Below are positions 33,033 through 58,844 of a DNA stretch of 64,000 nt, piece by piece; the stretch's first letter is position 1; each line of letters begins with the position of its first letter. The position numbers and the translations under genes were made by a program. Origin of the DNA: Acidimicrobiales bacterium (lineage in GTDB: Bacteria > Actinomycetota > Acidimicrobiia > Acidimicrobiales > Bog-793). A model generated the notes under the pieces. The model had not been told where the DNA came from, ran no database searches, and saw only the letters and a program-made list of their open reading frames with translations. Location: positions 3,551-67,550 of the forward strand of contig JBEKBT010000004.1 in NCBI GenBank assembly GCA_050015255.1, given 5' to 3'.

Positions 33033-33039
33033 GAAGGTC

Positions 33040-34862: not shown

Positions 34863-34913
34863 GTTCGGCCGGTCAGCCTAGCCGGTCTCCCGGCCAGACG
34901 CCGCTTGAAAGAG

Positions 34914-37447: not shown

Positions 37448-37468
37448 AAGCCAAAGGAGGATGATGTT

Positions 37469-37717: not shown

Positions 37718-37720
37718 CAG

Positions 37721-38113: not shown

Positions 38114-38121
38114 GCCCGGCG

Positions 38122-40106: not shown

Positions 40107-40114
40107 GGTTACGA

Positions 40115-41233: not shown

Positions 41234-41242
41234 GGCGGCCAC

Positions 41243-41998: not shown

Positions 41999-42002
41999 GA
42001 CC

Positions 42003-43310
42003 GTGCCTGTAGGTGGCCGGAAGATCCCGCCGGTCGCAGTGGAAAAGGAGCTGGCGACGGTCGCCTCCACCATCTCGGGGCGCGAGGTGGAGCTACCGGC
42101 GATGTGGAACCGGATGTTCGAGCCGCGGGTCCTCACCGACTACGGCCCGGATGGATTCGCCGCGATCTCGACCCTGCCCGGTGGTGAGTCGCTGGAATGG
42201 TGTTACGGCTGCGGCAAGTGCGTGCCGGTCTGCCCGGTCGACATGGTGGGCGACTATGGCCCGCGCAAGATCCACCGCAAGGTCCAGACCGGAACTCAGC
42301 TGCTGGCCGACGCCGATCTGTGGCTGTGCACCACTTGCGCCAACTGCCTGCGGGTCTGTCCGAAACAGGTCGACATGACCGCCATCATGCCGGCCGTGCG
42401 CGAGGCCGCGCTCAGCAGTGCGGAGGTGCCGGCGGAGCTGCAGGACGTCTTCGAGAAGACCTTCCGGCACGGCAACGCGCTCGGGCAGAGTCAGCGGCGC
42501 CGGGCGCAGTGGGCAGACAGCGCCGGGGTCCCCGTGCGGGTGCTGGCCAAGGATCCGGCACCCGTCGACGTGCTTTTCTACGTGGAGGACTACTGGAGCT
42601 TCCACCCCCGCGGCCAGGACGCGGCCCGCGCCTTCGCCAGGGTGGCCTCGGCGCTCGGCATCGACTGGGCGATTCTCGGCCCGGAGGAGAAGACGCTCGG
42701 TGACTCTCAGCGTCTTGCCGGCGAGAAGGGCCTGTTCGACGCGCTGGTCGAAGATGTCACCACGGTCCTGGCGAAATACGAGTTCGCCCGGATCGTGACG
42801 CCTGACCCGCATGCTTTCAACGCCCTGGTCAGGGAGTACCCGCGGCGCGGGCACACCTTCGATGCGCTGCACTACACACAGCTCCTCGCGCCCCTGGTCG
42901 GTCAGATCGACTGGGCCAGGGAGCTGAACTTGCGGGTGACCTTTCACGATCCGTGCTATTTGGGAAGGCAGCACGGCGAGTACGACGCCCCCCGGACGCT
43001 GCTCGAGGCGATTCCCGGCGTCGAAGTTGTCGAGATGGGCCGCTGCCGGGAGAACGCCTACTGCTGCGGTGGTGGCGGCGGCGGCATGTGGCTGGACGGT
43101 TTCACGAGAGATCACACGACCGAGCGCCTTTCCGAGCGCCGGGTTCGCGAGGCCGCCCAGACCGGGGCCGACGTGCTGGCGGTCTGCTGTCCTTATGAGG
43201 TGTCCAGGTTCACCGACGCCGCCAAGGCGACCGGTCACGAGGACCTGCGTGTGTGCGACGTCATCGAGCTGATGGACGAGGCGATGCGGGACGAGGCGCA
43301 AGGTGGTTGA
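42003..43310 (+). CDS. fused HdrC2-HdrB2-like Fe-S/CCG protein (HdrB3/HdrD-like)
   Basis: The N-terminal part has two ferredoxin motifs (CYGCGKCVPVCP, CTTCANCLRVCP). The C-terminal part has two CCG domains (HDPCYLGR, YCCGGGGG, VCCPYE). The exact start is uncertain. Confidence 0.82.
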   Translation: MPVGGRKIPPVAVEKELATVASTISGREVELPAMWNRMFEPRVLTDYGPDGFAAISTLPGGESLEWCYGCGKCVPVCPVDMVGDYGPRKIHRKVQTGTQLLADADLWLCTTCANCLRVCPKQVDMTAIMPAVREAALSSAEVPAELQDVFEKTFRHGNALGQSQRRRAQWADSAGVPVRVLAKDPAPVDVLFYVEDYWSFHPRGQDAARAFARVASALGIDWAILGPEEKTLGDSQRLAGEKGLFDALVEDVTTVLAKYEFARIVTPDPHAFNALVREYPRRGHTFDALHYTQLLAPLVGQIDWARELNLRVTFHDPCYLGRQHGEYDAPRTLLEAIPGVEVVEMGRCRENAYCCGGGGGGMWLDGFTRDHTTERLSERRVREAAQTGADVLAVCCPYEVSRFTDAAKATGHEDLRVCDVIELMDEAMRDEAQGG

Positions 43311-44331
43311 GCCGCTGCGAGTCGTCGACTCCGGTCTCAGCTCGCCGTTGCGTTCCCAGACCCTGTGGCATGCGATCGCCTACGGGGTGTCCGCCGGGGG
43401 ACGGGCGACTCTCTCTTTTTGCCGCCCGGCCGAGCCGTACGTCTGCCTCGGCTACCACCGGGGGATCGACGAGGTGGACCGCGACTACTGCCGGGAGAAC
43501 GGCCTGCCCCTCTTGCGGCGGATGGTGGGCGGCGGTCCGGTCTACCTGGACTCGGACCAGCTGTTCTTCCAGATCTGCCTGCCGGCCCGGGCGGTGCCAG
43601 CGGCCCGTCGCCAGGCCCTGCGCGTGCTGCTCGAGCCCGTCGTGACCGCTTTCCGCGCGGTCGGGGTGCCAGCGGCACTCGATGACGACCTGGAGATCTG
43701 CCTCGACGATCGCAAGATCTGCGGGCACGGGGCGGGCCAGATCGAGGACGCCGTGGTGGTCTGCGGCAACCTGATCCAGCGGTTCGACCACGAGCGGGCG
43801 GCCCGGGTGCTCGCCCTGGCCGATCCCGCCCAGAGGGACCAGACGCTCGCGCTGATGCACCGCTTCGTCGCCGCGACCCCGCTCGACCCGGCTGCCTTCC
43901 AGGCGGCCATGATCAGTGCCTACGCCACTGCGCTCGGGCTCGGTGCGCAAGGCGGTGCGTTGACCGGGACCGAGCGGACGGTGCTCGAGGGCCTTGACGA
44001 AAGATTCACCAGCGATACCTGGTTGGCCGGACCGGTCCGGCCCGCGACGGCAAGAGCCGGGAGACCCAGTGCTCGCCAGGTCAAGGTGCGAGCCGGGGTG
44101 TGGACGCTCGGCGCGACATACGACGGGGCACAGGTCGCCGCTGGCGTGGTCCGGGGGACGGTCGAGAAGGTGCGGCTGCACGACCGCGGACTGAACGGGT
44201 CGACAGAGCAGGCGGAAGAGGCCCTCCAGGGCATCCCGTTGCATTCGGTCGCTCGAGTGCTGACGGGCTTTGGTGATCCAGGGCGCCGGCTGGCTGCGGC
44301 CTTCGCGACAGCCGATCCCGGGAGGCTCTGA
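43303..44331 (+). CDS. lipoate-protein ligase family protein (LplA-like, copy 1)
   Basis: Motifs LRRMVGGGPVYLD and DDRKICGHGAGQ (LplA-type RRxxGGGxV and catalytic Lys context). GTG start overlaps the preceding gene by 8 nt. Confidence 0.78.
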   Translation: MVEPLRVVDSGLSSPLRSQTLWHAIAYGVSAGGRATLSFCRPAEPYVCLGYHRGIDEVDRDYCRENGLPLLRRMVGGGPVYLDSDQLFFQICLPARAVPAARRQALRVLLEPVVTAFRAVGVPAALDDDLEICLDDRKICGHGAGQIEDAVVVCGNLIQRFDHERAARVLALADPAQRDQTLALMHRFVAATPLDPAAFQAAMISAYATALGLGAQGGALTGTERTVLEGLDERFTSDTWLAGPVRPATARAGRPSARQVKVRAGVWTLGATYDGAQVAAGVVRGTVEKVRLHDRGLNGSTEQAEEALQGIPLHSVARVLTGFGDPGRRLAAAFATADPGRL

Positions 44332-44795
44332 TGGAAGAAACTGCGCTCGTCATCGTGTCCGGCTTCCCGCTCGCTCTCGACCGGCGCTACCAAGCGGAGA
44401 CGCACATGTGGGTGCTGGATACCGGACCGGGCCGGGTGAGGATCGGGATGGACCCGCTCGGGATCGAGACCAGCGGAACCCTGGCTCAGCTGTCGTTTCT
44501 GCCGACAGGGACCGAGCTCACAGCAGGCCGGCCGTTCGGCCAGCTGGAGGCGGCCAAGTTCGTGGGCCCGCTCCTCAGCCCCGTCTCAGGCGCCATGCTG
44601 GCCGTGAACGACGCGGTCGCCCGTGACCCGGGCCTGGCAGAGCGGGACCCGTACGGGGCCGGCTGGCTGATCGAGGCGAGCGTGAGCGAAACCGCCGGCG
44701 AGCTGTCGGGGCTTCTCGCCGAGCCGGCCGAGATCACCGCCTGGTTCGCGGCCAGGATCGCCCACTACCGGCTGAACGGGCTGCTCGCGCAATGA
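44331..44795 (+). CDS. lbpA: GcvH-like lipoate-binding protein LbpA (copy 1)
   Basis: 154 aa. THMWVL...VRIGMDP, the lipoyl-Lys context GQLEAAKFVGPLLSPVSGAMLAVN, and DPYGAGWL. Confidence 0.85.
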   Translation: MEETALVIVSGFPLALDRRYQAETHMWVLDTGPGRVRIGMDPLGIETSGTLAQLSFLPTGTELTAGRPFGQLEAAKFVGPLLSPVSGAMLAVNDAVARDPGLAERDPYGAGWLIEASVSETAGELSGLLAEPAEITAWFAARIAHYRLNGLLAQ

Positions 44796-45781
44796 CCACG
44801 GCGCAAGCGCTGTCGCGCCCCGCCGCGGTGCGGCGGGCGAACTTCCCTGACGTGATGGATTTTTACGCGCCGGGCCTGAAGCGCTGGCAAACCTCGGAGT
44901 GGGTCCCGACCACTCCCCGACGGTTCCTGCCCGTATCGGTCACCGGCTCGGCGTGCGCTCTGTCCTGCGACCACTGCCAGGCGAAGGTGCTCGACGGCAT
45001 GGTGTCGGTCCGCGCAGGTCAGGACCTGTTCACACTCGCAGCTCGCCTCCGCGAGGAGGGGAGCGAGGGGCTGCTCGTATCGGGCGGTTCCACCCGCGCC
45101 GGCGGGGTGCCGTTGTTGGCGCATCTGCGCCACATCGCGCGGATCCGCAGCGAGCTCGGGATGAAGGTCGTCGTGCACTCGGGCCTGGTGTCGCCCGAGC
45201 TCGCGGCCGGCCTGGCAGCATCGGGCGTGGACGGTGTGATGCTCGATGTCATCGGGTCCGACGAGACACTGCGCGACGTCTACCACCTCGACCTGACCGT
45301 GGCCGACGTGGACCGTTCGCTGCGGCTGCTGTCCGAGGCCGGGCTGCGGATCATCCCGCACATCGTCCTCGGTCTGCACTACGGCCGTTTCCTGGGCGAG
45401 CACCGGGCGCTGGAGATGGTCACCCGATACCCGGTCTCGACACTGATCCTGGTGCTGCTCGTGCCGCTCGTCGGCACGCCGATGGCGCATGTGCCGCCGC
45501 CCCCCGTCGATCAGGTGGCGGAGTTTTTCGCCACCGCCCGCTTGGCCGCTCCGTCGACGACGATCAATCTCGGCTGCGCCCGCCCGTTCGGTGCGCTGAA
45601 AGGGGAGCTCGACCGGGCGGCGATCGACCTCGGGCTGAACGGCATCGCCTATCCGGCGGACGGCGCAATCGAGTACGCGAGGTCGCGCGGGCTTGCACCG
45701 CGGCTGTTCGAGTACTGCTGCTCGCTCACCTGGAACGGGGCACAGGACAGCGGCTTGGCCGCCGTGCAGGTGACCAGGTGA
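44792..45781 (+). CDS. radical SAM protein (LipS1/LipS2-type lipoyl synthase component)
   Basis: CX3CX2C motif in VTGSACALSCDHCQA. ATGA overlap with lbpA. Confidence 0.8.
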   Translation: MTTAQALSRPAAVRRANFPDVMDFYAPGLKRWQTSEWVPTTPRRFLPVSVTGSACALSCDHCQAKVLDGMVSVRAGQDLFTLAARLREEGSEGLLVSGGSTRAGGVPLLAHLRHIARIRSELGMKVVVHSGLVSPELAAGLAASGVDGVMLDVIGSDETLRDVYHLDLTVADVDRSLRLLSEAGLRIIPHIVLGLHYGRFLGEHRALEMVTRYPVSTLILVLLVPLVGTPMAHVPPPPVDQVAEFFATARLAAPSTTINLGCARPFGALKGELDRAAIDLGLNGIAYPADGAIEYARSRGLAPRLFEYCCSLTWNGAQDSGLAAVQVTR

Positions 45782-46926
45782 GCGAGACGTGGCGGCTACT
45801 GGCCGACGACGGCGCCGGGGCAGCCGAGGGACTCGCCCTGGACGAAGCGCTGATGAGCCGGTACGCACGGGACGAACCGGACTGTCCGCCGACGTTGCGG
45901 CTCTACAGCTATCGCGATCACTGCGCCCTGATCGGCCGCTACCAGAACCTCGAGGCCGAGGTCGACCTGGCCGCCTGCCGTCGCACCGGCACCGAGGTCA
46001 GCCGCAGGCTCACGGGCGGAGGTGCCATCGTCATGGGATCTGGCCAGTTGGGAATTGCCTACGTCGACCGGGCACGGACCGACCAGCGTCCGCGGGAGAC
46101 CATCGAGGAACTCTCGGCCGCGCTCGTCGCCGGCTGCGCTCGACTGGGCATCCCTGCGAGCTTCGGTGGCAAGAACGACCTGGAGGTCGGCAGCCGGAAG
46201 ATCGCCGGCCTCGGGCTCTATGTCGACTCGGCCGGCGCGATGCTCTTCCACGCGAGTGTCCTGGCCGACCTCGACGTCGCGTTCATGCTTCAAGTGCTGC
46301 AGATACCCGCAGCGAAAATGGCCGACCGGGCCACGGCCGCGGTGACCGAGCGGATCACGACTGTCTCTGCCGAGACCGGCGCCCGGCACGACGCCGCGAC
46401 TCTTAGACCGGTCATCGCCGACAGCTTCGCGACGACCTTCGGGGTGTCCCTGGAGCCTGCGATGCCTAACCGGCAGGAGCAGGCTCACGCCGTTGCCCTC
46501 GCTGCCAGCAGGTACCGGTCGCAGGCCTGGCTGAGCGAGCGGAGCGTCGCGGCGGATGCCAGCGGGTCGTCGCTGTTGAAGACGCCGGCAGGGCTGGCCA
46601 GGATCTATCTCGCCACCCATGGTGACCTGGTCAAGAGTGTGATGGTCGCCGGGGACTTCAACGAGCTGCCACCCGCCCTGGCGGCTATGGAGTCCGGCCT
46701 TCGCTGGCGACGCCTGGAGCACGACGCCATCCTCGCCGTTGTTGCCCGCTCGCAGGCGGCCGACGCGCTGGGCGTCGCACCCGAGCGACTCGCCGCCGCC
46801 GTGATGGAGGCAGGCCGCCAGGCGGGCGAAAAAGACGCGGCCAGGGCGGTCCGGGCCACGGACTCCTGTTTGTTGCCTGAGCCGGTCGACGCCGCGGATC
46901 GGCGCTGTTGCCCCGAGCCGGGCTGA
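45778..46926 (+). CDS. lipoate-protein ligase A family protein (LplA-like, copy 2)
   Basis: Motifs LRLYSY, SRRLTGGGAIVM and GSRKIAGLGLY, with a C-terminal accessory domain. GTGA overlap with the preceding gene. The first ~293 codons of track ORF 44899..46926 are an out-of-frame shadow. Confidence 0.82.
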   Translation: MSETWRLLADDGAGAAEGLALDEALMSRYARDEPDCPPTLRLYSYRDHCALIGRYQNLEAEVDLAACRRTGTEVSRRLTGGGAIVMGSGQLGIAYVDRARTDQRPRETIEELSAALVAGCARLGIPASFGGKNDLEVGSRKIAGLGLYVDSAGAMLFHASVLADLDVAFMLQVLQIPAAKMADRATAAVTERITTVSAETGARHDAATLRPVIADSFATTFGVSLEPAMPNRQEQAHAVALAASRYRSQAWLSERSVAADASGSSLLKTPAGLARIYLATHGDLVKSVMVAGDFNELPPALAAMESGLRWRRLEHDAILAVVARSQAADALGVAPERLAAAVMEAGRQAGEKDAARAVRATDSCLLPEPVDAADRRCCPEPG

Positions 46927-46937
46927 AGAGAGACGCC

Positions 46938-48023
46938 ATGGTGGTCACCCAGCTTCTTCCACTGCCTGCAGCCGGCCTGCCGACCAAGGACAGCCCGGAG
47001 TACGTGCGCATCTCCATGGCGAGCGCGATCGCGCTACGGATGCGCTCGGGCCAGTTCAGCCGGGACTTCGGCTTCGGTGGCATCAACCTGTTGCTCAACT
47101 ACGAGCAAGGGTGCCGGTCCGACTGCGGCTACTGCGGGCTCGCCCGTACCCGCCCGGGCAGTTACGAGGACAAGTCGTTCATAAGGGTGGAGTGGCCGCT
47201 CGTGCGAACCGATGATCTCGTGGAGCGGGTGGCGCTTTTCGAGCCGGGGCTGACACGGCTCTGCATCTCGATGGTGACTCACGGCCGCGCGTACCGAGAT
47301 ACCTGCGATATCGCGCGGAGGATCGCCGAACGCGTCCGGACTCCGGTATCCGTCCTCGTCGCGCCGCCGACGCTGAGGCGCGAGCGCCTCGAGACCTTCA
47401 GGTCGATCGGTGTCGACATGATCGGGATCGGGCTCGACGCCGTCACCGAGAAGCTTTTCCGGAGCATTCGCACCGAGGTTCCTGCAGGTGGCCTGAAGTG
47501 GGAGAAGTACTGGGAGGTCGTGACCGACGCCCGCGACATCTTCGGGCCGTGGAAGGTGAACGTGCACACTCTGGTCGGGCTCGGTGAGTCGGACCAGGAC
47601 CTGCTCGCTCTGTTCGTCGCGCTGCGGGACCGGCAGATCTTCTCCTACCTGTTCTGCTTCAACCCGGAGCCTGACTCGCGCATGGCCGCCCAGCCGCAGC
47701 CCTCGCTCAGGCGCTGGCGCCGGGTACAGCTGGCCAGGCACCTGATCGAGGTTGAAGGCTACGGATTGGAGCAGTTCGGCTTCGACAGCGGCGGCGGGAT
47801 TGCCCGCGTGCGGGCGGACCGCTCCGCCATCGAAGAAGTCGTCGCGGACGGCAGGGCGTTCATGACCAACGGCTGCCCGGGCGAGAAGGGTGAACCTGGA
47901 TGCACGAGGCCGTACGGTTCGTACCGGCCCGGAGAATCGTTCCGCGACTACCCATTTCTGCCGGCGGCGAGCGATCTCGAGGAGATCGGCCGCCAGCTGG
48001 GGTTGGATGATGTCGTCGGATGA
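46938..48023 (+). CDS. radical SAM protein (biotin/lipoyl-synthase-like, LipS1/LipS2-type)
   Basis: CX3CX2C motif in YEQGCRSDCGYCGLA. About 361 aa from ATG 46938. Confidence 0.8.
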   Translation: MVVTQLLPLPAAGLPTKDSPEYVRISMASAIALRMRSGQFSRDFGFGGINLLLNYEQGCRSDCGYCGLARTRPGSYEDKSFIRVEWPLVRTDDLVERVALFEPGLTRLCISMVTHGRAYRDTCDIARRIAERVRTPVSVLVAPPTLRRERLETFRSIGVDMIGIGLDAVTEKLFRSIRTEVPAGGLKWEKYWEVVTDARDIFGPWKVNVHTLVGLGESDQDLLALFVALRDRQIFSYLFCFNPEPDSRMAAQPQPSLRRWRRVQLARHLIEVEGYGLEQFGFDSGGGIARVRADRSAIEEVVADGRAFMTNGCPGEKGEPGCTRPYGSYRPGESFRDYPFLPAASDLEEIGRQLGLDDVVG

Positions 48024-48041
48024 ACAGAGAGGTGGGCTGAG

Positions 48042-48833
48042 GTGCGAATCGTCGTGCCAGTGAAGGCGGTGCCCGATCTCGTCGAGGAGATCGATCTCAC
48101 CGCGGACGAGACCGGCATCGACCGGGAGTACCTGACGTTCGTGCTCGGCGAGTGGGACGCTCAGGCTCTCGAAGAGGCGCTGCTGTTGAAGGACGCCAGC
48201 GGGGCCGAGGTCGTGGCCGTCGGCCTGGCCGGTGACCCCGAGATCGACCAGATCCTCTACACCGCGCTCGCCAAGGGCGCGGACGCGGCCGTGAAGCTCG
48301 CTGACGCGAGTGGCGCGGTGTCGCCCGGACCGGCCGGGATCAGGATCGCCGACCGGGCCGCGCTCGTGGCAGGGTACCTCGAGGCTCAGCCTGCCGATCT
48401 GGTGATCTCCGGCGTGCAGGCCGCTGACGATCTGGACGGCCAACTGCCGCCCACGCTCGCTGCGCTCCTCGACCTGCCGCACGTCTCGGTGGCAGTCAGC
48501 GTCGAGGCCGAGGACGGCTCGGTCATCGTCCGCCAGGAGTTCGCCGGCGGGCGGTCACACGAGCTGCAGGTGCAAATGCCCGCCGTGATCGGTGTCCAGT
48601 CGGCCCGCCAGCCCCCTCGCTACGCCCCGATCACCCGGATCAAACAGGCCATGCAGGCGGGAGGGCTGACCGAGCTGGCGGTGTCGTCGCCGGCGATGCG
48701 AAGAGGCGTGGTCGTGCGCCGGATGCACCGCCCGGAGACGAGCGGCCAGGCCGAGATGCTCGAGGGCAGTCCCGGCGAGGTGGCGGATCAGATCGTGGGC
48801 CTGCTTCGCGCACGTGGCCTGATGAAAGGGTGA
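48042..48833 (+). CDS. etfB: electron transfer flavoprotein beta subunit
   Basis: MRIVVPVKAVPD... and EWDAQALEEALLLKD. GTG start follows GAGAGGTGGG. Confidence 0.88.
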   Translation: MRIVVPVKAVPDLVEEIDLTADETGIDREYLTFVLGEWDAQALEEALLLKDASGAEVVAVGLAGDPEIDQILYTALAKGADAAVKLADASGAVSPGPAGIRIADRAALVAGYLEAQPADLVISGVQAADDLDGQLPPTLAALLDLPHVSVAVSVEAEDGSVIVRQEFAGGRSHELQVQMPAVIGVQSARQPPRYAPITRIKQAMQAGGLTELAVSSPAMRRGVVVRRMHRPETSGQAEMLEGSPGEVADQIVGLLRARGLMKG

Positions 48834-48840
48834 ACGACAA

Positions 48841-49803
48841 GTGAGCGGCAATGTGATGGTGCTCGCCGAGCACACCGGCATGCAGGTCTCCGAGGGGACC
48901 TACGAGCTGATCGGCAAGGCGCACGAGCTGGCATCCGCGCTGGGCGGCCTGACCGAGGTGGCCCTGCTCGGACCCGCCGAACTGGCAGGCCAGCTCGGCG
49001 GCGCCGACGTCGTGGTCTCCGTCGATCACCCGGCCCTTGCGGAGTACCTGCCGGAGGCCTACGAGCGGGCGCTGTTGGAGGTGCTGGCACAGCGATCCCC
49101 GCGGCTGTTGCTGATCTCGAACGGGACTGTCGGCCTGGACCTGGCGGCCGCGCTCTCGGTGCGCTGGGACGCGCCACTGGCCGCTTATGTCAGCGCGCTC
49201 GAGATCGACGACGGCGTCGTGACCGCCACTGCGCAGATCCTCGGCGGGAAGGTGCTCGCGGAGCTCGAGCTGCCCGGTGAGCGCGCGATCGCCACCGTGC
49301 TCGGAGGCGCCTTAAGCGTGGAGACGGGCCGCGGCGCCCTCGGCGCGCAGGTGGTGCCCATCACGCCGCCGGCCGGGCTCGACGCGCTGCGGATGTCGCT
49401 TCGACAGGTCGTCGAAGCCGACGGGGGAGACCTCGACATCAGCTCGGCCGAGATGCTGGTCTCGGTCGGCCGCGGGATCGAGTCGCAGGAGAACATGGAG
49501 ATCGTGGCTGAGCTCGCCGACGCTCTCGGCGTCCCGCTTTCGGCGTCGCGCCCCGTGGTGGACGCAGGATGGCTGCCGAAGACCCGCCAGGTGGGCCAAT
49601 CGGGCTTGAAAGTCAAGCCCCGGGTGTATCTCGCGCTCGGCATCTCTGGAGCTCCCGAGCACCTGGAGGGCATGCGCAACGCCGAGCTGATCGTGGCCTG
49701 CAACACCGATCCTGGAGCGCCGATCTTCGGCGTCGCCCACTACGGCACGACCGTGGATCTCTTCGATCTGGTTCCGGAGCTCGTGGGCAAGGTCCGCGGC
49801 TGA
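48841..49803 (+). CDS. etfA: electron transfer flavoprotein alpha subunit
   Basis: C-terminal FAD-binding region with VSVGRGI, SRPVVDAGW, QVGQSGLKVKPRVYLALGISGAPEH and IVACNTDPGAPIF. Confidence 0.88.
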   Translation: MSGNVMVLAEHTGMQVSEGTYELIGKAHELASALGGLTEVALLGPAELAGQLGGADVVVSVDHPALAEYLPEAYERALLEVLAQRSPRLLLISNGTVGLDLAAALSVRWDAPLAAYVSALEIDDGVVTATAQILGGKVLAELELPGERAIATVLGGALSVETGRGALGAQVVPITPPAGLDALRMSLRQVVEADGGDLDISSAEMLVSVGRGIESQENMEIVAELADALGVPLSASRPVVDAGWLPKTRQVGQSGLKVKPRVYLALGISGAPEHLEGMRNAELIVACNTDPGAPIFGVAHYGTTVDLFDLVPELVGKVRG

Positions 49804-49805
49804 CC

Positions 49806-51968
49806 ATGACGGGCCAGCTCGGCCTGGTGGGCACGGCGGTGACCCGGCCGGTCTTCGAGGGCATCGGCCCGCTCGGAAAGGCGATCTTCTACGCGGTGGC
49901 CGCTGTGTCGACGGCCGTCTTCGCCTGGGGGGTCTGGCACCGGGTGCGGAAATACCGTATCGGCCGGGCGGCGGGGCGCGGGCCGACGATCCGGGCTGCT
50001 CTCGGCGGCCGGCTGGGCTCTATCGGCAAGGGGGCATCGGTGGCGAGAGGCAACCGCGCGACCGGTGTGGCGCACTTCCTCATCTTCTGGGGCTTCCTGG
50101 TCGCCTTCCTGGCGACGGTCATCCTCACGATCGACACCGACGTCGTCCGGAACCTCTCCCGGCTGATCGCCGGGCACGAGGACAGCTTCTTTCACGGCAC
50201 GTTCTTTATCGTCTACACCTTCGCGGTAGACACGTTGGGATTCGCGTTTCTCCTCGCCCTCGTCTACATGGTGGTCCGTCGAGGCGTGCGCAGACCCTGG
50301 CGTCTCGGCTACAGCCGGGCGGGCACGCCCGCCGGCGGCTACTCCCGCAAGGCCATGGTGGAGGGCGACTGGCTTTTCCTGGGACTGCTCCTGGCCGTCC
50401 TCGTCACCGCTTATGTGCTGACCGGCCTGCGGATCCTCGGCCAGCACATGCCGTGGTTCACCGTGTTCAGCCCGTTCGCCAGGGTCTTCGCCGAGGCCTT
50501 TTCCGGCCTCGGCATGACGGCGGCCCAGGCCGTGAGCGCCCACACCGTCTTGTGGTGGGTGCACGCCGGCCTCGCGCTGAGCTTCATCGCCTACATCCCC
50601 TACTCCAAGGCCATGCACATGCTCCTCGACGGGGTGAACCTGGTCGCCACGGACCGGTCGGCGACGCTCGCGCTACCCGCGCCGGTGGCGGACCACCCGG
50701 GCTATCAGGAGATCTCCGACTTCACCTGGAAAGAGCTGCTCGACCTCGACGCGTGCACGAGATGCGGCCGCTGCCACGAGGTGTGCCCGGCACGCGCCGG
50801 CGGGGCGCCGCTCTCGCCGCGCGACCTGATCCTCGACCTGCGCCAGTGGGTGGACACTTCGACAGGGGGGATCACGCTGCTGGACCGCGAGCGGAGGCCT
50901 GAGCGCACGGGCCCGCTCGCGAAGCCCGACGGAGTCAGGATCGCCGGGGACGTGATCGATGCCGGCGCGTTGTGGTCCTGCACGACGTGCATGCATTGCA
51001 TTGACGTCTGCCCGGTGGGCGTCGAGCACGTGCCCACGATCGTCCAATTACGGCGCAGCCTGGTCGACGAGGGAACCATGGACGCCACCTTGCAGCAGGC
51101 CCTGCAGAACCTGGCCACACAGGGCAACTCGCTCGGGAAGTCGGCCCGGATGCGAGGCCGTTGGACCCGTGAGCTGGACTTCGAGATCCCAGACGCCCGC
51201 AAGCACCCGGTTAAGTACCTATGGTTCGTTGGCGACTTCGCCAGTTTCGACGAGCGGCTGCAGGAGAGTTCCCGCATCCTCGCCAGGATCCTGCACGACG
51301 CGGGCGTCGATTTCGGCCTGTTGTACGAGGCGGAGCGCAACGCGGGCAACGACGTGCGCCGGGTCGGCGAGGAGGGCCTGTTCGAGGTGCTCGCCGAGCA
51401 CAACCTCGAGGCCCTACGCGAGGCCAGCTTCGACGAGATCTTCACGACCGACCCGCACACGCTCAACGCCCTGCGCAACGAGTACCCCGCGCTGGGGGCG
51501 AGCTACCCGGTCTGGCACTACACCGAGCTGCTCGCCCAGTTGTTAGAGGGCGGCGCCATCGGCGTCGGGCCGCTTGGCTACCGGGTCACCTACCACGATC
51601 CGTGCTATCTGGCCCGTTACAACGGCGTGGTCGAGGCGCCCCGGCGGATCCTGCGGGCGCTCGGCTGCGAACTGATCGAGATGCCCCGCAACGGCGCGGA
51701 CACCTTCTGCTGCGGCGCAGGCGGCGGCCGGATCTGGATGGAGGACAGCCTCCTCAAGGAGCGGCCGAGCGAGAACCGGATCGGCGAGGCACTGCGCCTG
51801 GGCGTGGGACAGTTCGTCGTTGCCTGCCCGAAGGACGTGACCATGTTCTCCGATGCGGTCAAGACTGTCCGGGCTGATGATCGGCTCGCCGTCCGCGACA
51901 TCACGTTGCTGGTACAGGAGGCCATCGCAAGGCTTGCCGAGCCCGGCGTCGTCGGAGAGACGGTGTGA
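49806..51968 (+). CDS. membrane-anchored Fe-S oxidoreductase (NarI/DsrM-like TM module fused to an HdrD/DsrK-like module; EMO-type Etf:quinone oxidoreductase candidate)
   Basis: About 5 N-terminal TM helices with conserved His (VAHFLIFWGF, HTVLWWVHAGL). Then CTRCGRCHEVCP and CTTCMHCIDVCP, then CCG domains (HDPCYLARYNG, FCCGAGGG, VACPKD). ATG 49806 lies 2 nt after the etfA stop. Confidence 0.8.
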   Translation: MTGQLGLVGTAVTRPVFEGIGPLGKAIFYAVAAVSTAVFAWGVWHRVRKYRIGRAAGRGPTIRAALGGRLGSIGKGASVARGNRATGVAHFLIFWGFLVAFLATVILTIDTDVVRNLSRLIAGHEDSFFHGTFFIVYTFAVDTLGFAFLLALVYMVVRRGVRRPWRLGYSRAGTPAGGYSRKAMVEGDWLFLGLLLAVLVTAYVLTGLRILGQHMPWFTVFSPFARVFAEAFSGLGMTAAQAVSAHTVLWWVHAGLALSFIAYIPYSKAMHMLLDGVNLVATDRSATLALPAPVADHPGYQEISDFTWKELLDLDACTRCGRCHEVCPARAGGAPLSPRDLILDLRQWVDTSTGGITLLDRERRPERTGPLAKPDGVRIAGDVIDAGALWSCTTCMHCIDVCPVGVEHVPTIVQLRRSLVDEGTMDATLQQALQNLATQGNSLGKSARMRGRWTRELDFEIPDARKHPVKYLWFVGDFASFDERLQESSRILARILHDAGVDFGLLYEAERNAGNDVRRVGEEGLFEVLAEHNLEALREASFDEIFTTDPHTLNALRNEYPALGASYPVWHYTELLAQLLEGGAIGVGPLGYRVTYHDPCYLARYNGVVEAPRRILRALGCELIEMPRNGADTFCCGAGGGRIWMEDSLLKERPSENRIGEALRLGVGQFVVACPKDVTMFSDAVKTVRADDRLAVRDITLLVQEAIARLAEPGVVGETV

Positions 51969-52017
51969 TGGCCGGCCACGATCAGAACAACGCCGGAACC
52001 GGACGGGAGACGAAGCG

Positions 52018-52452
52018 ATGACCATCGTCAACAAATGCAACCTACCCGAGGACCTGTACTACGTGGTGGGCAAGCACGTTTGGGCGCGCCGTGACGGCGA
52101 TCTGGTGACAGTCGGGATGACCGACGTCGCGCAGAACATGGCGAAGACCATCGTCGCGGTGACACCGAAGGCCGCGGGCAAATCAGTCGAGAAAGGTCGG
52201 AACATCGCCACCGTGGAGAGCGGCAAGTGGGTCGGCCCGGTCTCCGCGCCGATAAGCGGCGAGATCGTGGCGGTCAACGACGCTCTCGTCGCCTCGCCGA
52301 GCCTGGTCAACTCCGATCCCTATGGCGCCGGCTGGGTCGCCCGGTTGCGCCCGTCCGACTGGGAAAGCGATGTCGCCGACCTTGTCACCGGGCCGGAGGG
52401 CATCGAGGCTTACCGCCAGTTCCTCGATGCTGAGGGGATCACCTGCGGCTGA
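52018..52452 (+). CDS. lbpA: GcvH-like lipoate-binding protein LbpA (copy 2)
   Basis: 144 aa. KHVWAR...VTVGMTD, the lipoyl-Lys context IATVESGKWVGPVSAPISGEIVAVN, and DPYGAGWV. Confidence 0.85.
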   Translation: MTIVNKCNLPEDLYYVVGKHVWARRDGDLVTVGMTDVAQNMAKTIVAVTPKAAGKSVEKGRNIATVESGKWVGPVSAPISGEIVAVNDALVASPSLVNSDPYGAGWVARLRPSDWESDVADLVTGPEGIEAYRQFLDAEGITCG

Positions 52453-52537
52453 GCCGTCGAGCCCGTGAGACGCGACTGGGGACGGCATCGGCGCCCCTCG
52501 GGCATACGACGACTCCGAGTCGGTGCCAACCAACTGC

Positions 52538-52571
52538 AGATTAGCCATGTAATCTAGCAGGAAGATAGGAT
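52538..52571 (+). promoter_or_regulatory. candidate operator palindrome and promoter upstream of the dsrE3-like / encapsulin / desulfurase genes
   Basis: AGATTAGCCATGTAATCT (52538-52555; GATTA-N6-TAATC) lies in a locally AT-rich stretch of the 222-nt gap. Possible -35 TTAGCC and -10 TAGGAT (52566-52571). A related GATTA-N8-TAATC occurs upstream of the Rrf2 gene at 58919-58936. Confidence 0.3.
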
Positions 52572-52674
52572 ATCGCAGGTCGCTGATCTCGCTCATCAGC
52601 CCTGGACCGCAGCACCGTCACGCGGCGCCCGGCCTCCCCTCGGGAAGCCGCCGCCGAGTTAGGAGGGAAGTGAC

Positions 52675-53205
52675 ATGGACGACACTGACACCGGAGCCGT
52701 TGCCTCGGCGGCGGCCTCCGGCGCGGACGAGCCCAAGCGAATGGCGATCATCTGCTGGAGCAACGACCTCGACCGGGTATGGCCGGTGATGATCCTGGCC
52801 ACTACGGGCGCCGCCTCCGGTCTCGAGGTGGATGTCTTCTTCACGTTCTGGGGGTTGCGGGTGCTGCAGAAGAACGAGAAGAGGGTCACGGGCCAGAACT
52901 GGATGCAAAAAGGAGAGTCGCTGTTCGACCGCGGTGGCAGCGAGCACCTCAAGCTGAGCAAGGTGCACTTCGCAGGAATGGGGACCTCCATGATCAAGAC
53001 GCTGGCCAAGCAGCACAAGGTCGCCAGCGTGACCGAGATGATGGAGATGGCCATCGACGTCGGCGTGCGGCTGCACCCGTGCCAGATGACCATGGACCTT
53101 TACGGGCTGTCGACGTCGGACTTCATCGACGGGTTGCAGCCCTCCCTTGGCGCTGCCAGCTTCATCGACATGGCCGCCAAGGCCGACATCCAGCTGTTCA
53201 TCTGA
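52675..53205 (+). CDS. DsrE/DsrF/DrsH-like family protein (DsrE3-type sulfurtransferase candidate)
   Basis: 176 aa. MAIICWSNDLDRVWPVMILATTGAASG, a conserved Cys in RLHPCQMTMDL, and GAASFIDMA. A strong AGGAGGGAAG lies upstream of ATG 52675. Confidence 0.78.
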   Translation: MDDTDTGAVASAAASGADEPKRMAIICWSNDLDRVWPVMILATTGAASGLEVDVFFTFWGLRVLQKNEKRVTGQNWMQKGESLFDRGGSEHLKLSKVHFAGMGTSMIKTLAKQHKVASVTEMMEMAIDVGVRLHPCQMTMDLYGLSTSDFIDGLQPSLGAASFIDMAAKADIQLFI

Positions 53206-53366
53206 CATCACCACAGAGCCCCGCGACACGAGAAGGGCTCGATTCGGAGGCCAATTGGAGAGACAGTCCACGTCGAAATGCCCGATCCCGCTAATACTTG
53301 ACGGCTTTGTCCGACCCGCATCTGCGGTTACGTGGTACGGGGCAGTCCACAACGAAAGGTTCAGCA

Positions 53367-54305
53367 ATGCCCAAAGCAGCCAGTGACCAGCCGACAAATC
53401 TCGCGCTGACCGACGACGCAGCGCGCCAACTCACCAATGCCACCAAAAGCACCGCACAGCTCGAGACGATCACGCCCCGCTGGCTGGTTCAGATGCTGCA
53501 GTGGGTCCCGGTCGAGGCAGGTATCTACCGGCTCAACCGGGTCAAGGATCCGAGGTCGGTCACTGTGGCCACCCCGCCCCGAGACGAGTCGGAGCTGCCG
53601 ACGACCTACGTCGGCTACTACGAGAAGCCACGTGAGTACTTCCTGAACACGGTGGCCACCATCGTCGACATCCACACCCGCATCTCCGATCTCTACAGCA
53701 GCCCGTTCGACCAGATCGCCGAGCAGATCAGGCTCACGATCGAGACGGTCAAAGAGCGCCAGGAGAGCGAGCTCATCAACAACCCGGACTACGGGCTGCT
53801 CGCGGTCGCCGATGCCGGTCAGCACCTCTCCACCCTCACCGGCCCGCCCACGCCCGATGACTTCGACGAGCTGATCACGAAGGTCTGGAAAGAGCCGGCG
53901 TTCTTTCTTGCCCACCCGCTCGCCATCGCCGCCTTCGGCCGTGAATGCACGCGCCGCGGCGTCCCGCCCGCGACCGTGAGCATCCACGGATCGCAATTCA
54001 TCACCTGGCGCGGCCTGCCCATCGTCCCCTCCGACAAGGTGCAGATCGACCACGGTAAGACCAAGGTGCTCCTGCTGCGCGTCGGTGAGCGGCGCCAGGG
54101 CGTGATCGGCCTGTACCAGCCCGGCCTGACCGGGGAGCAGTCGCCGGGGCTCTCGGTGCGGTTCATGGGCATCAGCCGCAACGCCATCGCCTCCTATCTG
54201 ATCTCGCTGTACTACTCGCTCGCCGTGCTCACGCCCGATGCGCTCGCAGTTCTCGACGACGTCGAGATCGGCAAGTTCCATGACTACTCACACACCTACC
54301 GGTGA
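53367..54305 (+). CDS. Family 2A encapsulin shell protein (MMP-I / SrpI-like, HK97 fold, no cNMP domain)
   Basis: 312 aa. LTDDAARQLTNATKSTAQLETITPRWLVQMLQWVPVEAGIYRLNRV, DIHTRISDLYSSPFDQIAEQIRLTIETVKERQESELINNPDYGLL, FFLAHPLAIAAFGRECTRRGVPP, GLSVRFMGISRNAIASYL. As I recall it, this is close to collinear with the Mycobacterium leprae major membrane protein I family. ATG 53367 follows GAAAGG. Confidence 0.9.
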   Translation: MPKAASDQPTNLALTDDAARQLTNATKSTAQLETITPRWLVQMLQWVPVEAGIYRLNRVKDPRSVTVATPPRDESELPTTYVGYYEKPREYFLNTVATIVDIHTRISDLYSSPFDQIAEQIRLTIETVKERQESELINNPDYGLLAVADAGQHLSTLTGPPTPDDFDELITKVWKEPAFFLAHPLAIAAFGRECTRRGVPPATVSIHGSQFITWRGLPIVPSDKVQIDHGKTKVLLLRVGERRQGVIGLYQPGLTGEQSPGLSVRFMGISRNAIASYLISLYYSLAVLTPDALAVLDDVEIGKFHDYSHTYR

Positions 54306-56040
54306 CGGTGTGAGCGCCGCTCCTCCGTGGTTGCCGGACGAGGCGACGCTGACCCGGTTGGCCACCGAGTTCTTCGGCCCCATGCCGGGTCACGAGACAG
54401 GACCGGCCCTCCCGGCCGATCCGACAGCGGCCCTGCACGTGCCACAGCCGTCGGCTGAACCGGCCGACTACCAGGCGCCCGCCGTGGTCTCTGGTTACCC
54501 GCCTGCGGCCGACGTGCCGGGGTACCAGCCGCCCGATCTGCTCTCGAGCTACCACCGGGCCGCATCGGTCCCGGGCCGACTGGCGGCTCTCGCCTCTCAG
54601 CCGCCGGCCCTCTCCGTACCGGGCGTGCCGGCTGCCAGCGCCGCCGCGATCGGGGGCGCCACGAGGTCGGATCAGCTGGAGCGGGCATTGAATCTGCCTG
54701 GCGCCGCCCAGGCTGGTACGCCCTCGTTCTACTTCATCGAGGAACGCCAGCCGCCAGCTGGACTGCTGACCACTCCCGGCCCTCGGACCGCGGCGCCAGT
54801 GGATGCCTATCCGGCCTTTCACGTCGAGGCGGTGCGGCGGGACTTCCCGATCCTGCACGAGCGGATCCACGGACGACAGCTCGTCTGGCTCGACAACGGC
54901 GCCACGACCCAGAAGCCGCAGGTGGTCATCGACCGGTTGGCGTCCTTCTACTCGCATGAGAACTCGAACATCCACCGCTCCGCGCATTCTCTTGCGGCGC
55001 GATCCTCCGATGCCTACGAAGGCGCCCGGAAGAAGGTCGCGGACTTCCTCGGCGCGCCGTCGGCCGCGGACGTCGTGTTCACCCGCGGCACGACCGAGGC
55101 GATCAACCTGGTCGCCCAGGCCTGGGGCCGCCAGCACGTCGGCCGGGACGACGAGATCGTGATCTCGCACCTCGAGCATCACGCCAACATCGTCCCGTGG
55201 CAGCAGCTGGCCGCCGAGACCGGGGCGAAGCTGAAGGTCATCCCCGTCGACGATGACGGCCGGCTGCTCCTCGACGCCTACGGCGACCTGCTGAGCGAGC
55301 GGACCAGGCTGGTCTCGGTCGCGCACGTCTCCAATGTGCTGGGCACGATCGTCCCGGTGAAAGAGGTGATAGACGCGGCGCACCGCGTCGGCGCCAGGGT
55401 GCTGATCGACGGGGCGCAGGCCGTCGCGCACATGGTCGTCGACGTTCAGGACATGGACGCGGACTTCTATGTGTTCTCCGGGCACAAGATATTCGGTCCC
55501 ACCGGCATCGGCGCCCTGTACGGCAAGTCCGACCTCCTCGAGGAGATGCCGCCGTGGCAGGGCGGCGGGAACATGATCTCCGACGTCACTTTGGAGCGGA
55601 CCATCTACCAACGCCCGCCGGCCAAGTTCGAGGCGGGGACGGGCAACATCGCCGACGCCGTCGGGCTGGGCACCGCCCTCGACTACCTGAGCCGGCTCGG
55701 GCGGAGCATCATCGAGCGCTACGAGCACGAATTGCTCCAGTACGCCATCGCCGAGATCCGCAGCGTCCCCGGACTTCGCCTGATCGGGACCGCTCCGGAG
55801 AAGGCGAGCGTTCTCACCTTCGTGCTGGACGGTTACCGACCGGAGGAGGTGGGCTCAGCGCTGGATAGCGAGGGCATCGCCGTGCGCGCCGGTCACCACT
55901 GCGCCCAGCCGATCCTGCGCCGCTACGGGTTGGAGTCGGCCGTGCGCCCATCGCTGGCGATGTACAACACCTACGCCGAGGTCGACCTGCTCGTCGCCGC
56001 GCTGCGCAGACTTTCCGCGGACGCCGGCAACCGCCGCTGA
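54280..56040 (+). CDS. SufS/CsdA-type cysteine desulfurase with a ~190-aa disordered N-terminal encapsulin cargo-loading domain
   Basis: The N-terminus is Pro/Ala-rich and carries LTRLATEFF, like the conserved LARLANEFF-type loading motif of Family 2A cargo. The catalytic domain has FPILHERIHGRQLVWLDNGATTQKP, HHANIVPW, SGHK (PLP Lys) and RAGHHCAQP (catalytic Cys). ATG 54280 overlaps the shell gene by 26 nt. An alternative GTG at 54310 lies 4 nt after the shell stop. Confidence 0.9.
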   Translation: MTTHTPTGDGVSAAPPWLPDEATLTRLATEFFGPMPGHETGPALPADPTAALHVPQPSAEPADYQAPAVVSGYPPAADVPGYQPPDLLSSYHRAASVPGRLAALASQPPALSVPGVPAASAAAIGGATRSDQLERALNLPGAAQAGTPSFYFIEERQPPAGLLTTPGPRTAAPVDAYPAFHVEAVRRDFPILHERIHGRQLVWLDNGATTQKPQVVIDRLASFYSHENSNIHRSAHSLAARSSDAYEGARKKVADFLGAPSAADVVFTRGTTEAINLVAQAWGRQHVGRDDEIVISHLEHHANIVPWQQLAAETGAKLKVIPVDDDGRLLLDAYGDLLSERTRLVSVAHVSNVLGTIVPVKEVIDAAHRVGARVLIDGAQAVAHMVVDVQDMDADFYVFSGHKIFGPTGIGALYGKSDLLEEMPPWQGGGNMISDVTLERTIYQRPPAKFEAGTGNIADAVGLGTALDYLSRLGRSIIERYEHELLQYAIAEIRSVPGLRLIGTAPEKASVLTFVLDGYRPEEVGSALDSEGIAVRAGHHCAQPILRRYGLESAVRPSLAMYNTYAEVDLLVAALRRLSADAGNRR

Positions 56041-56158: not shown

Positions 56159-57688
56159 ATGACCTCACAAGGCGACCGCCGGCCCGCGCACCTCTGGGCC
56201 CTTCGTTCCACACTCGCGGTAGTGATCCTCGCCTACCTGGTGCTTCCCGTCATTGAAGCCCGGTTCATCCTGAGGTCCAGCGCGAACATACCGATCTCCG
56301 ACACCTGGAACTTCATCCCCGTGATCGCAGGGTTCGTCAGGACCGGGCACATACCATGGGCGGTGATCTTCAAATTCTACGGTGCTGGTCGACCGGTACT
56401 CGAGCGGCTCGGACTGCTGCTGGACGCGAAGTACTTCGCGATGAATGTTCAACTGGTGAAGCTGTCGTCGGTCCCGGTCGGGATCCTGGAGACGGCGTGC
56501 GCCATTTGTGCCTTCCGCTTCGCCCTTCCGCGGGCGCGACTGGTGGTGGTGCTGCTCGCAGCATATCCAGTGGCGCTCGTCATATTTTGTTGGAACAACT
56601 GGCAGAACCTTCTCGATGAGTGGAACCTCATGAATCTGGCTGCCGTCGCGCTTGGGTTTCTCGCGATCGTGCTGACCGGGCAGCTCCGTTCTGGAAGTCG
56701 AAAGAGTACATACCTTTTGCTTCTGGTGATGCTTACTTGCGCCGTGGCGTCATTCACGGGAGAGTCGGGGACTCTGTCCTGGATCGCGTGCGCACTGGTC
56801 TTGTGGCTCCCGTTCTCGCGTTCTCACCTGGCCGAAAAGCTTGCCTTCTCGGCGGTAGCCGTCGTGTTCCTTGTGCTCTACTTCGTCGGCAGCTCCGGGG
56901 TGGTTTCAGGACACCCGCTGCACCATATGGGGACAGTGGTGGAGTTCGCGCTGATATGCCTGGGCAACGGCGTGGTAGGTGGCGGCGTCAAGGAGCTGGC
57001 GTTGGCAAGGGCGATCGGGGTCGCAGAAGTGGCGATAGCCCTGATCGTGTTGGGAATGTGGTATGTCGACCGAAGGCTGAGGGAGGATCGGGCTATGCAC
57101 GTCGCCGTGGGTTTGATGGCCTTCGGCGCCATGGCTGCGGTTTCGACGGCGCTGAGCCGTTTACAGATCGGAATCGACACGGCGATGTCTTCGAGATATG
57201 TTGTGTTGACCGCCCCGGTGGTGATCGGGATCTATCTGGTCCTGGTTCGGTTGTTCAGCCTGCGTGAAGCTGGCGAGGGGAGGGTTGCGTTCGGGTTGAG
57301 GACCGCAGGTGTGCTGGCCCTGCCATGTCTGCTGGCGGCGGTGCTTTCTGCCGTCGCTGTCACTTCCGATATCAAGCTGAACAAGACATCTTCGAGCAGG
57401 AGGGCGTATTACGTCGCACTGAAGCACATGACCTGCGATCCGGACGCCTACTCGAATCTTGATCTTTCGAGGTTCGACCATTTCGGGAGTTTGAACTCGC
57501 GGGAAAAGGCGGAGTTGCTGGCCCAGATCGCGGACCTCCGGCGCGCGAAGTTGAGTGTGTTCTCCGGAGGTCTCTGCTGGGCTTACGCCCGTGCCGCGGC
57601 GCGCGGCCCGAGGCCGGAGAGTTCGCGTCATGCGGACAAAAGCGCGCGGGAAGCGCGCACGGGGCACCGGGTTCCGACAGCTCTCTGA
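56159..57688 (+). CDS. polytopic membrane protein of unknown function (lower-GC gene)
   Basis: 509 aa with about 11-13 hydrophobic helices and a soluble C-terminal tail. It has visibly more A/T-ending codons than its neighbours. I recognised no diagnostic motif. It may be glycosyltransferase- or polymerase-like. Confidence 0.6.
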   Translation: MTSQGDRRPAHLWALRSTLAVVILAYLVLPVIEARFILRSSANIPISDTWNFIPVIAGFVRTGHIPWAVIFKFYGAGRPVLERLGLLLDAKYFAMNVQLVKLSSVPVGILETACAICAFRFALPRARLVVVLLAAYPVALVIFCWNNWQNLLDEWNLMNLAAVALGFLAIVLTGQLRSGSRKSTYLLLLVMLTCAVASFTGESGTLSWIACALVLWLPFSRSHLAEKLAFSAVAVVFLVLYFVGSSGVVSGHPLHHMGTVVEFALICLGNGVVGGGVKELALARAIGVAEVAIALIVLGMWYVDRRLREDRAMHVAVGLMAFGAMAAVSTALSRLQIGIDTAMSSRYVVLTAPVVIGIYLVLVRLFSLREAGEGRVAFGLRTAGVLALPCLLAAVLSAVAVTSDIKLNKTSSSRRAYYVALKHMTCDPDAYSNLDLSRFDHFGSLNSREKAELLAQIADLRRAKLSVFSGGLCWAYARAAARGPRPESSRHADKSAREARTGHRVPTAL

Positions 57689-58388: not shown

Positions 58389-58844
58389 TCAGTGCGGCTC
58401 CCACGCACCCGGGCGTGTGACGAGGCGAGCCACTTGGCTGGGGAGCTTGCCGGTCACGACCTGCTCGAGCGTGACCTCGTCGAGCACGCCGCGCAGGCAC
58501 GCTCGGACGGCGACCCAGACTTTTTGCAGGTGGACCGCGGCGTCTTCGTAGCTGGCCGACTCGGGGCGCATGCCGCGCACCTCGGCCAGCGGGCCCTCCA
58601 GCCTGCGGAACACGTCGCCGATGGTGATCTCCGATGCGGGACGGGCGAGCTTGTACCCGCCTTCGTTGCCGCGCTGGCTCGTGACGATCCCGACTCGGCG
58701 AAGATCGTTCAGGATCGCGCGGAGGAAGCGGACGGGAAGCCCTTGAGCTTCGGCGAGCTCCTCGGCGGTGAGTGGCTCGCCGTCGCGGGCGGCCAAAGTA
58801 CACAGCGCCCGCAGCGCGTACTCGATTCTGGCTGAGATGTGCAT
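58389..58844 (-). CDS. Rrf2-family transcriptional regulator (CymR/NsrR/IscR-like)
   Basis: MHISARIEYALRALCTLA, a wHTH segment (LTAEELAEAQGLPVRFLRAILNDLRRVGIVTSQRGNEGGYKLA) and ITIGDVFRRLEG. It lacks the three-Cys cluster-binding motif in the C-terminal half, so it resembles a cluster-less CymR-type regulator. Confidence 0.85.
   Translation of the reverse strand: MHISARIEYALRALCTLAARDGEPLTAEELAEAQGLPVRFLRAILNDLRRVGIVTSQRGNEGGYKLARPASEITIGDVFRRLEGPLAEVRGMRPESASYEDAAVHLQKVWVAVRACLRGVLDEVTLEQVVTGKLPSQVARLVTRPGAWEPH

Follow-up and report, generated by a model that had tools for sequence, protein, structure and literature searches.

We analyzed a 64,000-nt stretch of contig JBEKBT010000004.1 from an Acidimicrobiales bacterium (assembly GCA_050015255.1), hereafter the window, and focused on two plus-strand genes at 53367-56040 that encode the shell protein and the cysteine desulfurase cargo of an encapsulin. 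Both open reading frames were found at the coordinates given earlier by a model that had only the letters and their translations (the sequence-only reading), with a shell of 312 amino acids (aa) and a cargo start codon at 54280. The G+C content of the window is 62-72%, and the desulfurase frame is open from 54238 to 56040. The gene pair comprises the following features:

53299-53366, plus strand: conserved leader 5′ of the shell gene, with an inverted repeat (CCGCA-N-TGCGG) and a ribosome-binding site, GAAAGG, at 53354-53359
53367-54305, plus strand: shell gene, Family 2A encapsulin (HK97 fold, SrpI/Mmp1 family), 312 aa, ATG at 53367 and TGA at 54303-54305
54280-56040, plus strand: cargo gene, Family 2A encapsulin cysteine desulfurase, 586 aa, ATG at 54280
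54280-54305, plus strand: out-of-frame overlap of the shell and cargo genes, 26 nt, the cargo ATG being formed from the shell codons CAT-GAC (His-Asp)
54280-54819, plus strand: putative cargo-loading N-terminal domain, residues 1-180, predicted to be disordered from its composition and the AlphaFold2 confidence score (predicted local distance difference test, pLDDT)
54331-54390, plus strand: candidate loading motif 1 in its extended form, LPDEATLTRLATEFFGPMPG, residues 18-37, of which the part LTRLATEFFGP is residues 24-34 (54349-54381)
54718-54744, plus strand: candidate loading motif 2, TPSFYFIEE, residues 147-155 (published form AASPYYFLDG)
54820-56037, plus strand: SufS-type (group II) cysteine desulfurase domain dependent on pyridoxal 5′-phosphate (PLP), with the PLP lysine K403 at 55486-55488 and the catalytic cysteine C541 at 55900-55902

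The shell protein matched the NCBIfam model NF041162 (encap_f2a) with 507.6 bits (cut-off 380, E = 8e-153) over residues 14-307 and profile positions 1-295. Its sole Pfam match was the SrpI-like family PF19307 (E = 1.3e-101), and no cyclic nucleotide monophosphate (cNMP)-binding domain was matched by Pfam at E ≤ 0.01 anywhere in the 312 residues. The Family 2B model also scored above its cut-off (416.7 against 400), via the C-terminal HK97 part alone (profile positions 211-449). Known Family 2B encapsulins (9BJE, 9BHU and 9BIX) have the HK97 core in common with the window shell, but at about 450-477 aa they are longer and contain a cNMP-binding insertion, and they aligned to the window shell solely from residue 62 or so onwards. 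Gapless full-length alignments were obtained with the solved shells of A. baumannii (8t6r, the best match with 506 bits, E = 2.7e-151), S. elongatus (SrpI, 6x8m) and mycobacteria (Mmp1, 8wol and 9ksl), so that the lengthwise relationship to the MMP-I/SrpI family, which the sequence-only reading had put forward, was recovered. At the five-fold pore, R192, G194 and P196 of SrpI correspond to the identical R196, G198 and P200 of the window shell, and the cargo-proximal residues at the three-fold axis, F262 and Y273 of SrpI, are likewise identical (F266 and Y277). The sequence GGAAAGG, located 7-8 nt before the shell ATG, is invariant in eight related loci, which places the start of the shell gene at 53367. 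On sequence grounds, the shell is a Family 2A and not a Family 2B encapsulin, as had been proposed from the missing insertion.

We found that the cargo protein matched the model NF041166 (f2_encap_cargo1) with 832.9 bits (cut-off 800, E = 2.6e-250) and the SufS model TIGR01979 with 560.5 bits, in agreement with its earlier description as a SufS-like desulfurase. Its best PDB match was 8kg1, the M. smegmatis Enc-CD (605 bits, E = 1.2e-180), the encapsulated enzyme, while ordinary SufS proteins reached about 447 bits (E. coli SufS 447). H300, K403, C541 and R556 are invariant in an alignment of 41 homologues. Subtracting 24 from each number gives the corresponding M. smegmatis Enc-CD residues, H276, K379, C517 and R532. 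The SGHK and GHHCAQP motifs also align with solved desulfurases. The catalytic domain begins at residue 184 according to the SufS model, at residues 175-186 according to the PDB alignments and at residue 202 according to Pfam Aminotran_5. The N-terminal extension is thus about 180 aa long, slightly shorter than the 190 or so residues first estimated. Its description as Pro/Ala-rich and without a predicted fold stood: the first 180 residues contain 19.4% Ala, 17.2% Pro and 8.3% Gly, and AlphaFold2 with the 41-sequence alignment gave pLDDT values below 50 at residues 1-19 and 33-176. The lone predicted element of this domain was a short helix at residues 21-32, lying over motif 1.

Motif 1 (LTRLATEFFG, residues 24-33) is identical at 7 of 10 positions to LARLANEFFS, which was defined together with AASPYYFLDG in S. 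elongatus (Nichols et al. 2021, PMC8049743). It is embedded in a longer conserved block, LPDEATLxRLAxEFFxxLPG, in which P19, D20 and L24 are invariant among the 41 homologues. Using a loose, position-anchored pattern over the 77 loci of the genome collection, we detected a homologue of motif 1 in about 66 of the 77 related cargos, at a distance of 20-45 residues from the N-terminus. The core of motif 2, [FY]YF[LIV], is present in 72 of the 77 loci, and among the 41 homologues Y151 does not vary, while P148, F150 and F152 hardly do. One observation weighs against this assignment of the N-terminal domain, in that NF041166 aligned solely from cargo residue 142 and the domain diverges from the profile consensus. 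In S. elongatus (PMC8049743) and M. smegmatis (PMC11659603), the N-terminal domain was necessary and sufficient for loading; no single motif was enough, and larger parts of the domain were. Moreover, the cryo-electron microscopy (cryo-EM) study of the A. baumannii encapsulin (PMC10836720) proposes several discontiguous contacts between cargo and shell. The sequence-only reading had singled out LTRLATEFFGP as the loading motif. Its homology to the published motif is confirmed; calling it "the" loading motif was an overstatement, because single motifs are insufficient in homologues, and the second motif had been missed.

The shell and desulfurase genes are kept together in 73 of 80 related loci, and in the remaining 7 the contig ends right after the shell gene or no desulfurase lies directly downstream. 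This bears on a quite different reading of the segment, namely a leftover prophage capsid gene that sits by chance next to an ordinary free SufS serving iron-sulfur cluster assembly. The HK97 capsid fold is indeed common to encapsulin shells, and the catalytic domain is that of a normal SufS. However, the pair is not flanked by phage genes, and the shell, besides matching encapsulin-specific models, is about 70% identical to solved encapsulins. The desulfurase, for its part, carries both motifs in an N-terminal domain specific to encapsulin cargos, and no suf partner genes are located in its vicinity. The prophage explanation fails on the encapsulin-specific matches, the lack of phage genes and the conserved pairing, and its probability is practically negligible.

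Family membership, the two motifs, the catalytic and pore residues and the conservation of the gene overlap described below are direct observations, and we put the probability that the segment is a two-gene Family 2A desulfurase encapsulin at roughly 0.9. Every defining feature of such a pair that can be tested at this level was found, so that the genes are, as far as sequences tell, an ordinary and already automatically annotated Family 2A desulfurase encapsulin. NCBI holds an identical 586-aa cargo protein that is named family 2A encapsulin cargo cysteine desulfurase, and the exact shell protein was also found on peat-bog metagenome contigs. The nearest genomes are metagenome-assembled genomes of Acidimicrobiales and Acidimicrobiaceae from bog sites. 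No second copy of the shell or cargo gene was found within the window. The family to which the pair adds one member already counts more than 1,400 known operons, and three of its model systems have been solved.

By analogy with its homologues, the window pair may be expected to assemble, load its cargo and store sulfur as follows. The 312-aa shell would self-assemble into an HK97-fold, T=1 particle of 60 subunits and about 24 nm, a prediction that follows from its identity of about 70% to shells solved by cryo-EM. The disordered domain of about 180 residues carries several short motifs, including LPDEATLTRLATEFF, which forms a short predicted helix, and TPSFYFIEE, and these probably bind separate non-polar patches of the inner shell surface, with the desulfurase being trapped as the shell closes. 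Cysteine would enter via the conserved five-fold pore (RRGVPP), the desulfurase would yield alanine and a persulfide, and elemental sulfur would accumulate within the shell, which may act as a sulfur store or as a sequestering compartment. Storage of elemental sulfur has been demonstrated for the A. baumannii encapsulin (PMC10836720). The genes cysK and cysE, typical neighbours of Family 2A operons, are present in the same cluster as the window pair.

We further compared the window pair with the three model systems. The Mmp1/Enc-CD system of M. smegmatis (MSMEG_4357-4358; 8WOL, 8WON and 8KG1; Tang et al. 2024, PMC11659603) is likewise an actinobacterial two-gene shell-desulfurase unit, and its shell aligned over the full length with the window shell (445 bits). 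As in the window cargo, its desulfurase has a disordered N-terminal region with several short motifs, the first of them near the N-terminus; this region is shorter (about 155 aa) than that of the window cargo. The mycobacterial operon has been described as a stand-alone two-gene unit, whereas the window pair is nested in a cluster of cysK, cysE and sulfur-oxidation (sHdr) genes. For A. baumannii 118362 (PDB 8T6R; Benisch et al. 2024, PMC10836720), tblastn against A. baumannii records gave a shell identity of 70.9%. The C-terminus of this shell, HDY, can create an overlapping ATG like that of the window, and its cargo has a Pro/Gly/Ser-rich loading domain of about 225 aa with five short motifs. 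The A. baumannii operon consists of genes for a rhodanese, a serine acetyltransferase, the shell and the desulfurase, while in the window no rhodanese was found between 25.5 and 62 kb and cysE lies 16 kb upstream. The SrpI/CyD system of S. elongatus PCC 7942 (6X8M; PMC8049743) has a shell 68.5% identical, without gaps, to that of the window, and its neighbourhood on the plasmid pANL, cysK-cysE(epsC)-srpI-cyd with a nearby Rrf2 regulator, resembles that of the window, where cysK, cysE and an Rrf2 gene likewise occur. In contrast to the window pair with its 26-nt overlap, the S. elongatus genes are plasmid-borne and separated by a 234-nt gap, the shell C-terminus HTY forms no ATG, and the surroundings include a downstream rhodanese and no sHdr cluster.

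The sequence-only reading had noted that the cargo ATG at 54280 lies inside the shell gene and had suggested that this couples the translation of the two proteins. We found that the overlap, which reaches 26 nt into the shell gene in another frame, is conserved and carries a codon-level signature. The shell and cargo genes overlap by the same 26 nt in 59 of 77 species-level loci, spanning Actinomycetota and Pseudomonadota, and in three loci (L014, L028 and L030) its ATG is the sole possible start upstream of motif 1. The ATG arises from the shell His-Asp/Glu codons (CAT-GAx) within the conserved C-terminus (F/Y)H(D/E)Y. In GC-rich shell genes, defined by a G+C content at third codon positions (GC3) above 0.8, the His at the overlap site is encoded by CAT in 45 of 56 cases; elsewhere in these genes, CAT accounts for 71 of 263 His codons (Fisher p = 1e-13, uncorrected for phylogeny). 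In the window shell gene, the remaining six His codons are all CAC. Loci with CAC at the overlap site start their cargo 5-16 nt past the shell stop codon. Furthermore, Shine-Dalgarno-like pairing before the overlap ATG in related loci has a median of -6.4 kcal/mol, compared with a background of -2.3 kcal/mol. These results indicate that the 26-nt overlap is real and selected. The word "overlap", in the sense of shell and cargo genes, is absent from the two main desulfurase-encapsulin papers and the large survey, and the overlap appears to be unreported in the searchable literature.

Several observations speak against this placement of the cargo start or against a general role for the overlap. 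In the window itself, the Shine-Dalgarno-like pairing before ATG 54280 is weak (-3.0 kcal/mol), and the alternative starts ATG 54238, GTG 54310 and TTG 54331 are available. The S. elongatus pair on pANL works with its 234-nt gap, so that function does not depend on an overlap. On an Azospirillum plasmid the two genes overlap by 14 nt, and the 26-nt form is thus not universal. The cargo could accordingly start downstream of the shell stop codon without any overlap (GTG 54310 or TTG 54331), or upstream at ATG 54238 with a 68-nt overlap. Each of the four candidates precedes motif 1 within the open frame, and one JGI gene call uses TTG 54331, giving 569 aa. An in-frame ATG at -67, the position of window 54238, occurs in about one third of loci. 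It arises from an Asp codon that reads GAT in 23 of 55 GC-rich shell genes, compared with 17% at other Asp codons (p = 3e-5), a bias that may reflect an alternative start or a lineage effect. On the other hand, the ATG at -25 is much better conserved (59-66 of 77 loci), has no competing candidate in several loci, is preceded by the stronger pairing in most relatives, and is replaced by a new start just after the stop codon where the site carries CAC; moreover, the 586-aa form is the one listed by NCBI and predicted by most gene callers. We consider a cargo start at one of the other codons unlikely, and retain ATG 54280.

A cargo ATG located 26 nt inside the shell gene would place both proteins on one mRNA and physically link their translation, and it is reasonable to suggest from the conserved overlap that it provides translational coupling and control of stoichiometry. 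Independent initiation at the cargo ATG is also possible, because a Shine-Dalgarno-like sequence precedes this codon in most relatives. At most 24 cargo copies per 60-subunit shell have been reported in a homologous system, and the conserved overlap offers a simple handle on how this ratio of cargo to shell is set: a synonymous change from CAT to CAC would remove the cargo start while leaving the shell protein unaltered.

Upstream of the encapsulin genes, we identified a long run of sulfur-metabolism genes on the same strand:

35811-36743, plus strand: cysK
36758-37447, plus strand: cysE
37469-37717, plus strand: tusA
37721-38113, plus strand: dsrE, first copy
38122-43310, plus strand: shdrC1, shdrB1, shdrA, shdrH and shdrB3
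43303-48023, plus strand: lipoate-protein ligase gene, lbpA, lipS1, a second ligase-like gene and lipS2
48042-51968, plus strand: etfB, etfA and the gene of a membrane Fe-S/CCG protein (emo)
52018-52452, plus strand: second lbpA
52675-53205, plus strand: second dsrE

Judged by gene content, the region 37469-53205 is a complete type II sHdr/LbpA sulfur-oxidation cluster, set between cysK-cysE and the encapsulin genes. The published type II sHdr-LbpA clusters (Tanabe et al. 2024, PMC11094781) have the same gene content and order, with TusA, DsrE, LbpA, sLpl(AB) and LipS1/S2; an encapsulin neighbour, as present in the window, is unreported for them in the searchable literature. Shortly before cysK there are three tRNA genes, at 34789-34987 on the minus strand and 35566-35639 on the plus strand. 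A long open reading frame from 35637 overestimates cysK, the conserved part of which runs from about 35811, because tRNA genes lie there.

In five other Acidimicrobiaceae species (L009-L013), the sHdr cluster also lies directly upstream of the shell-desulfurase pair (enc-CD), with protein identities of 67-88%, while the downstream flank changes. The head of the cluster, cysK-cysE-tusA-dsrE, was found elsewhere solely in L095, a metagenome contig with a DsrE that is also on the contig of L012. In the closest species, L007 and L008, whose shell is 92% identical, DNA alignment showed that the 16.3 kb corresponding to window 36989-53298 are missing. In both, a truncated cysE comprising the first 80 codons or so is fused to the encapsulin leader (L008 junction at 3909-4083), and cysK is 90% identical to that of the window. 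No obvious direct repeats, as signatures of a mobile element, were seen in the aligned junctions of this 16.3-kb indel. The truncated cysE left in L007 and L008 indicates that the block was probably lost in their lineage by a clean, simple deletion. In L008, which lost the sHdr cluster, a gene for a group II intron reverse transcriptase/maturase is located upstream of cysK, at 215-1597 on the minus strand.

We also examined, through look-ups of DsrE homologues, what follows the sHdr cluster in other genomes. In an abundant related lineage, whose DsrE is 89% identical, and in other actinobacteria, unrelated genes and no encapsulin come after the cluster. A general adjacency of sHdr and encapsulin genes was rejected, since of six look-ups on homologues of the two DsrE proteins, the four that showed the sHdr tail all had unrelated genes next to it. 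The type II tail (lbpA-lbpA-dsrE) was seen in other actinobacteria at 6558-11971 on the minus strand of L089/L090, at 9693-12375 on the plus strand of L091 and at 6546-9061 on the plus strand of L093/L094. The genes behind it there encode a molybdopterin oxidoreductase set, RuBisCO and phosphoribulokinase, or a Rieske protein and a SulP transporter, which suggests that the type II sHdr cluster occurs in varied metabolic settings.

Given this arrangement, we considered whether the encapsulin is wired into the adjacent sHdr/LbpA pathway, such that stored sulfur would be passed to DsrE/TusA and oxidized to sulfite by sHdr, or such that the shell would buffer sulfane sulfur like sulfur globules. 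The genes cysK-cysE-tusA-dsrE-shdrC1B1AHB3, the lipoate genes, etfAB-emo-lbpA-dsrE and enc-CD are contiguous on one strand, and the order of sHdr cluster and then enc-CD is kept in the five other species while their downstream flank varies. Remobilization of the stored sulfur is an open question for which rhodanese-like sulfur carriers are the proposed route, and in the window the carriers DsrE and TusA are present in a region where no rhodanese was found. Encapsulin and sHdr are not mentioned together in the searchable literature. However, the two modules are separable, with L007 and L008 keeping enc-CD after the 16.3-kb deletion, and with the related lineage and other actinobacteria having sHdr without an encapsulin behind it. 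The enc-CD pair keeps its own leader whatever lies upstream, at a gap of 157-486 nt from dsrE, and the published list of neighbours for Family 2A shells includes no DsrE, GCV_H, ETF or CCG families. Such wiring is quite improbable, and its strictest form, in which the encapsulin is a working part of a sulfur-oxidation supercluster, as a store of zero-valent sulfur filled from cysteine and emptied by DsrE/TusA into sHdr, appears very doubtful to us. In broader terms, a functional link between stored sulfur and sHdr is possible and makes an attractive hypothesis that rests on clade-limited synteny. If true, it would explain how encapsulin-stored sulfur is remobilized and would give sHdr-type oxidizers a counterpart of the sulfur globule. 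An sHdr cluster nested in a canonical cysK-cysE-enc-CD locus, together with natural deletion variants, provides a testable lead on sulfur remobilization.

The window and L007-L013 share a conserved leader of about 70 nt in front of the shell gene, irrespective of whether the sHdr cluster lies upstream. This leader, with its inverted repeat CCGCA-N-TGCGG, may serve as an operator or form an RNA hairpin. Rfam gave no match for the leader at gathering thresholds and none at E ≤ 1 in 53150-53420, and a riboswitch or other known RNA 5′ of the shell gene was rejected on this empty result. No sigma-70 consensus promoter was found around the two genes, and two terminator-like sites inside the dsrE gene occur at about chance level.

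Downstream of the encapsulin genes, a plus-strand gene at 56159-57688 encodes a 509-aa multi-pass membrane protein. It begins 119 nt past the cargo gene in a stretch of lower G+C content (63%), matches no Pfam or NCBIfam family, and is conserved solely in L009 (66%). The gene of the Rrf2-family regulator is located 2.3 kb downstream of the cargo gene, at 58389-58844 on the minus strand. The regulator is CymR/IscR-like, with scores below the equivalog cut-offs, and is 96% identical in L009, where its neighbours are 61-66% identical. Further upstream in the window, a cobalamin riboswitch was identified at 33119-33254 on the minus strand (41.3 bits, gathering score 31.5), upstream of a minus-strand set at 27415-33164 that encodes ECF/CbiQ-type transporter components and an ABC ATPase.

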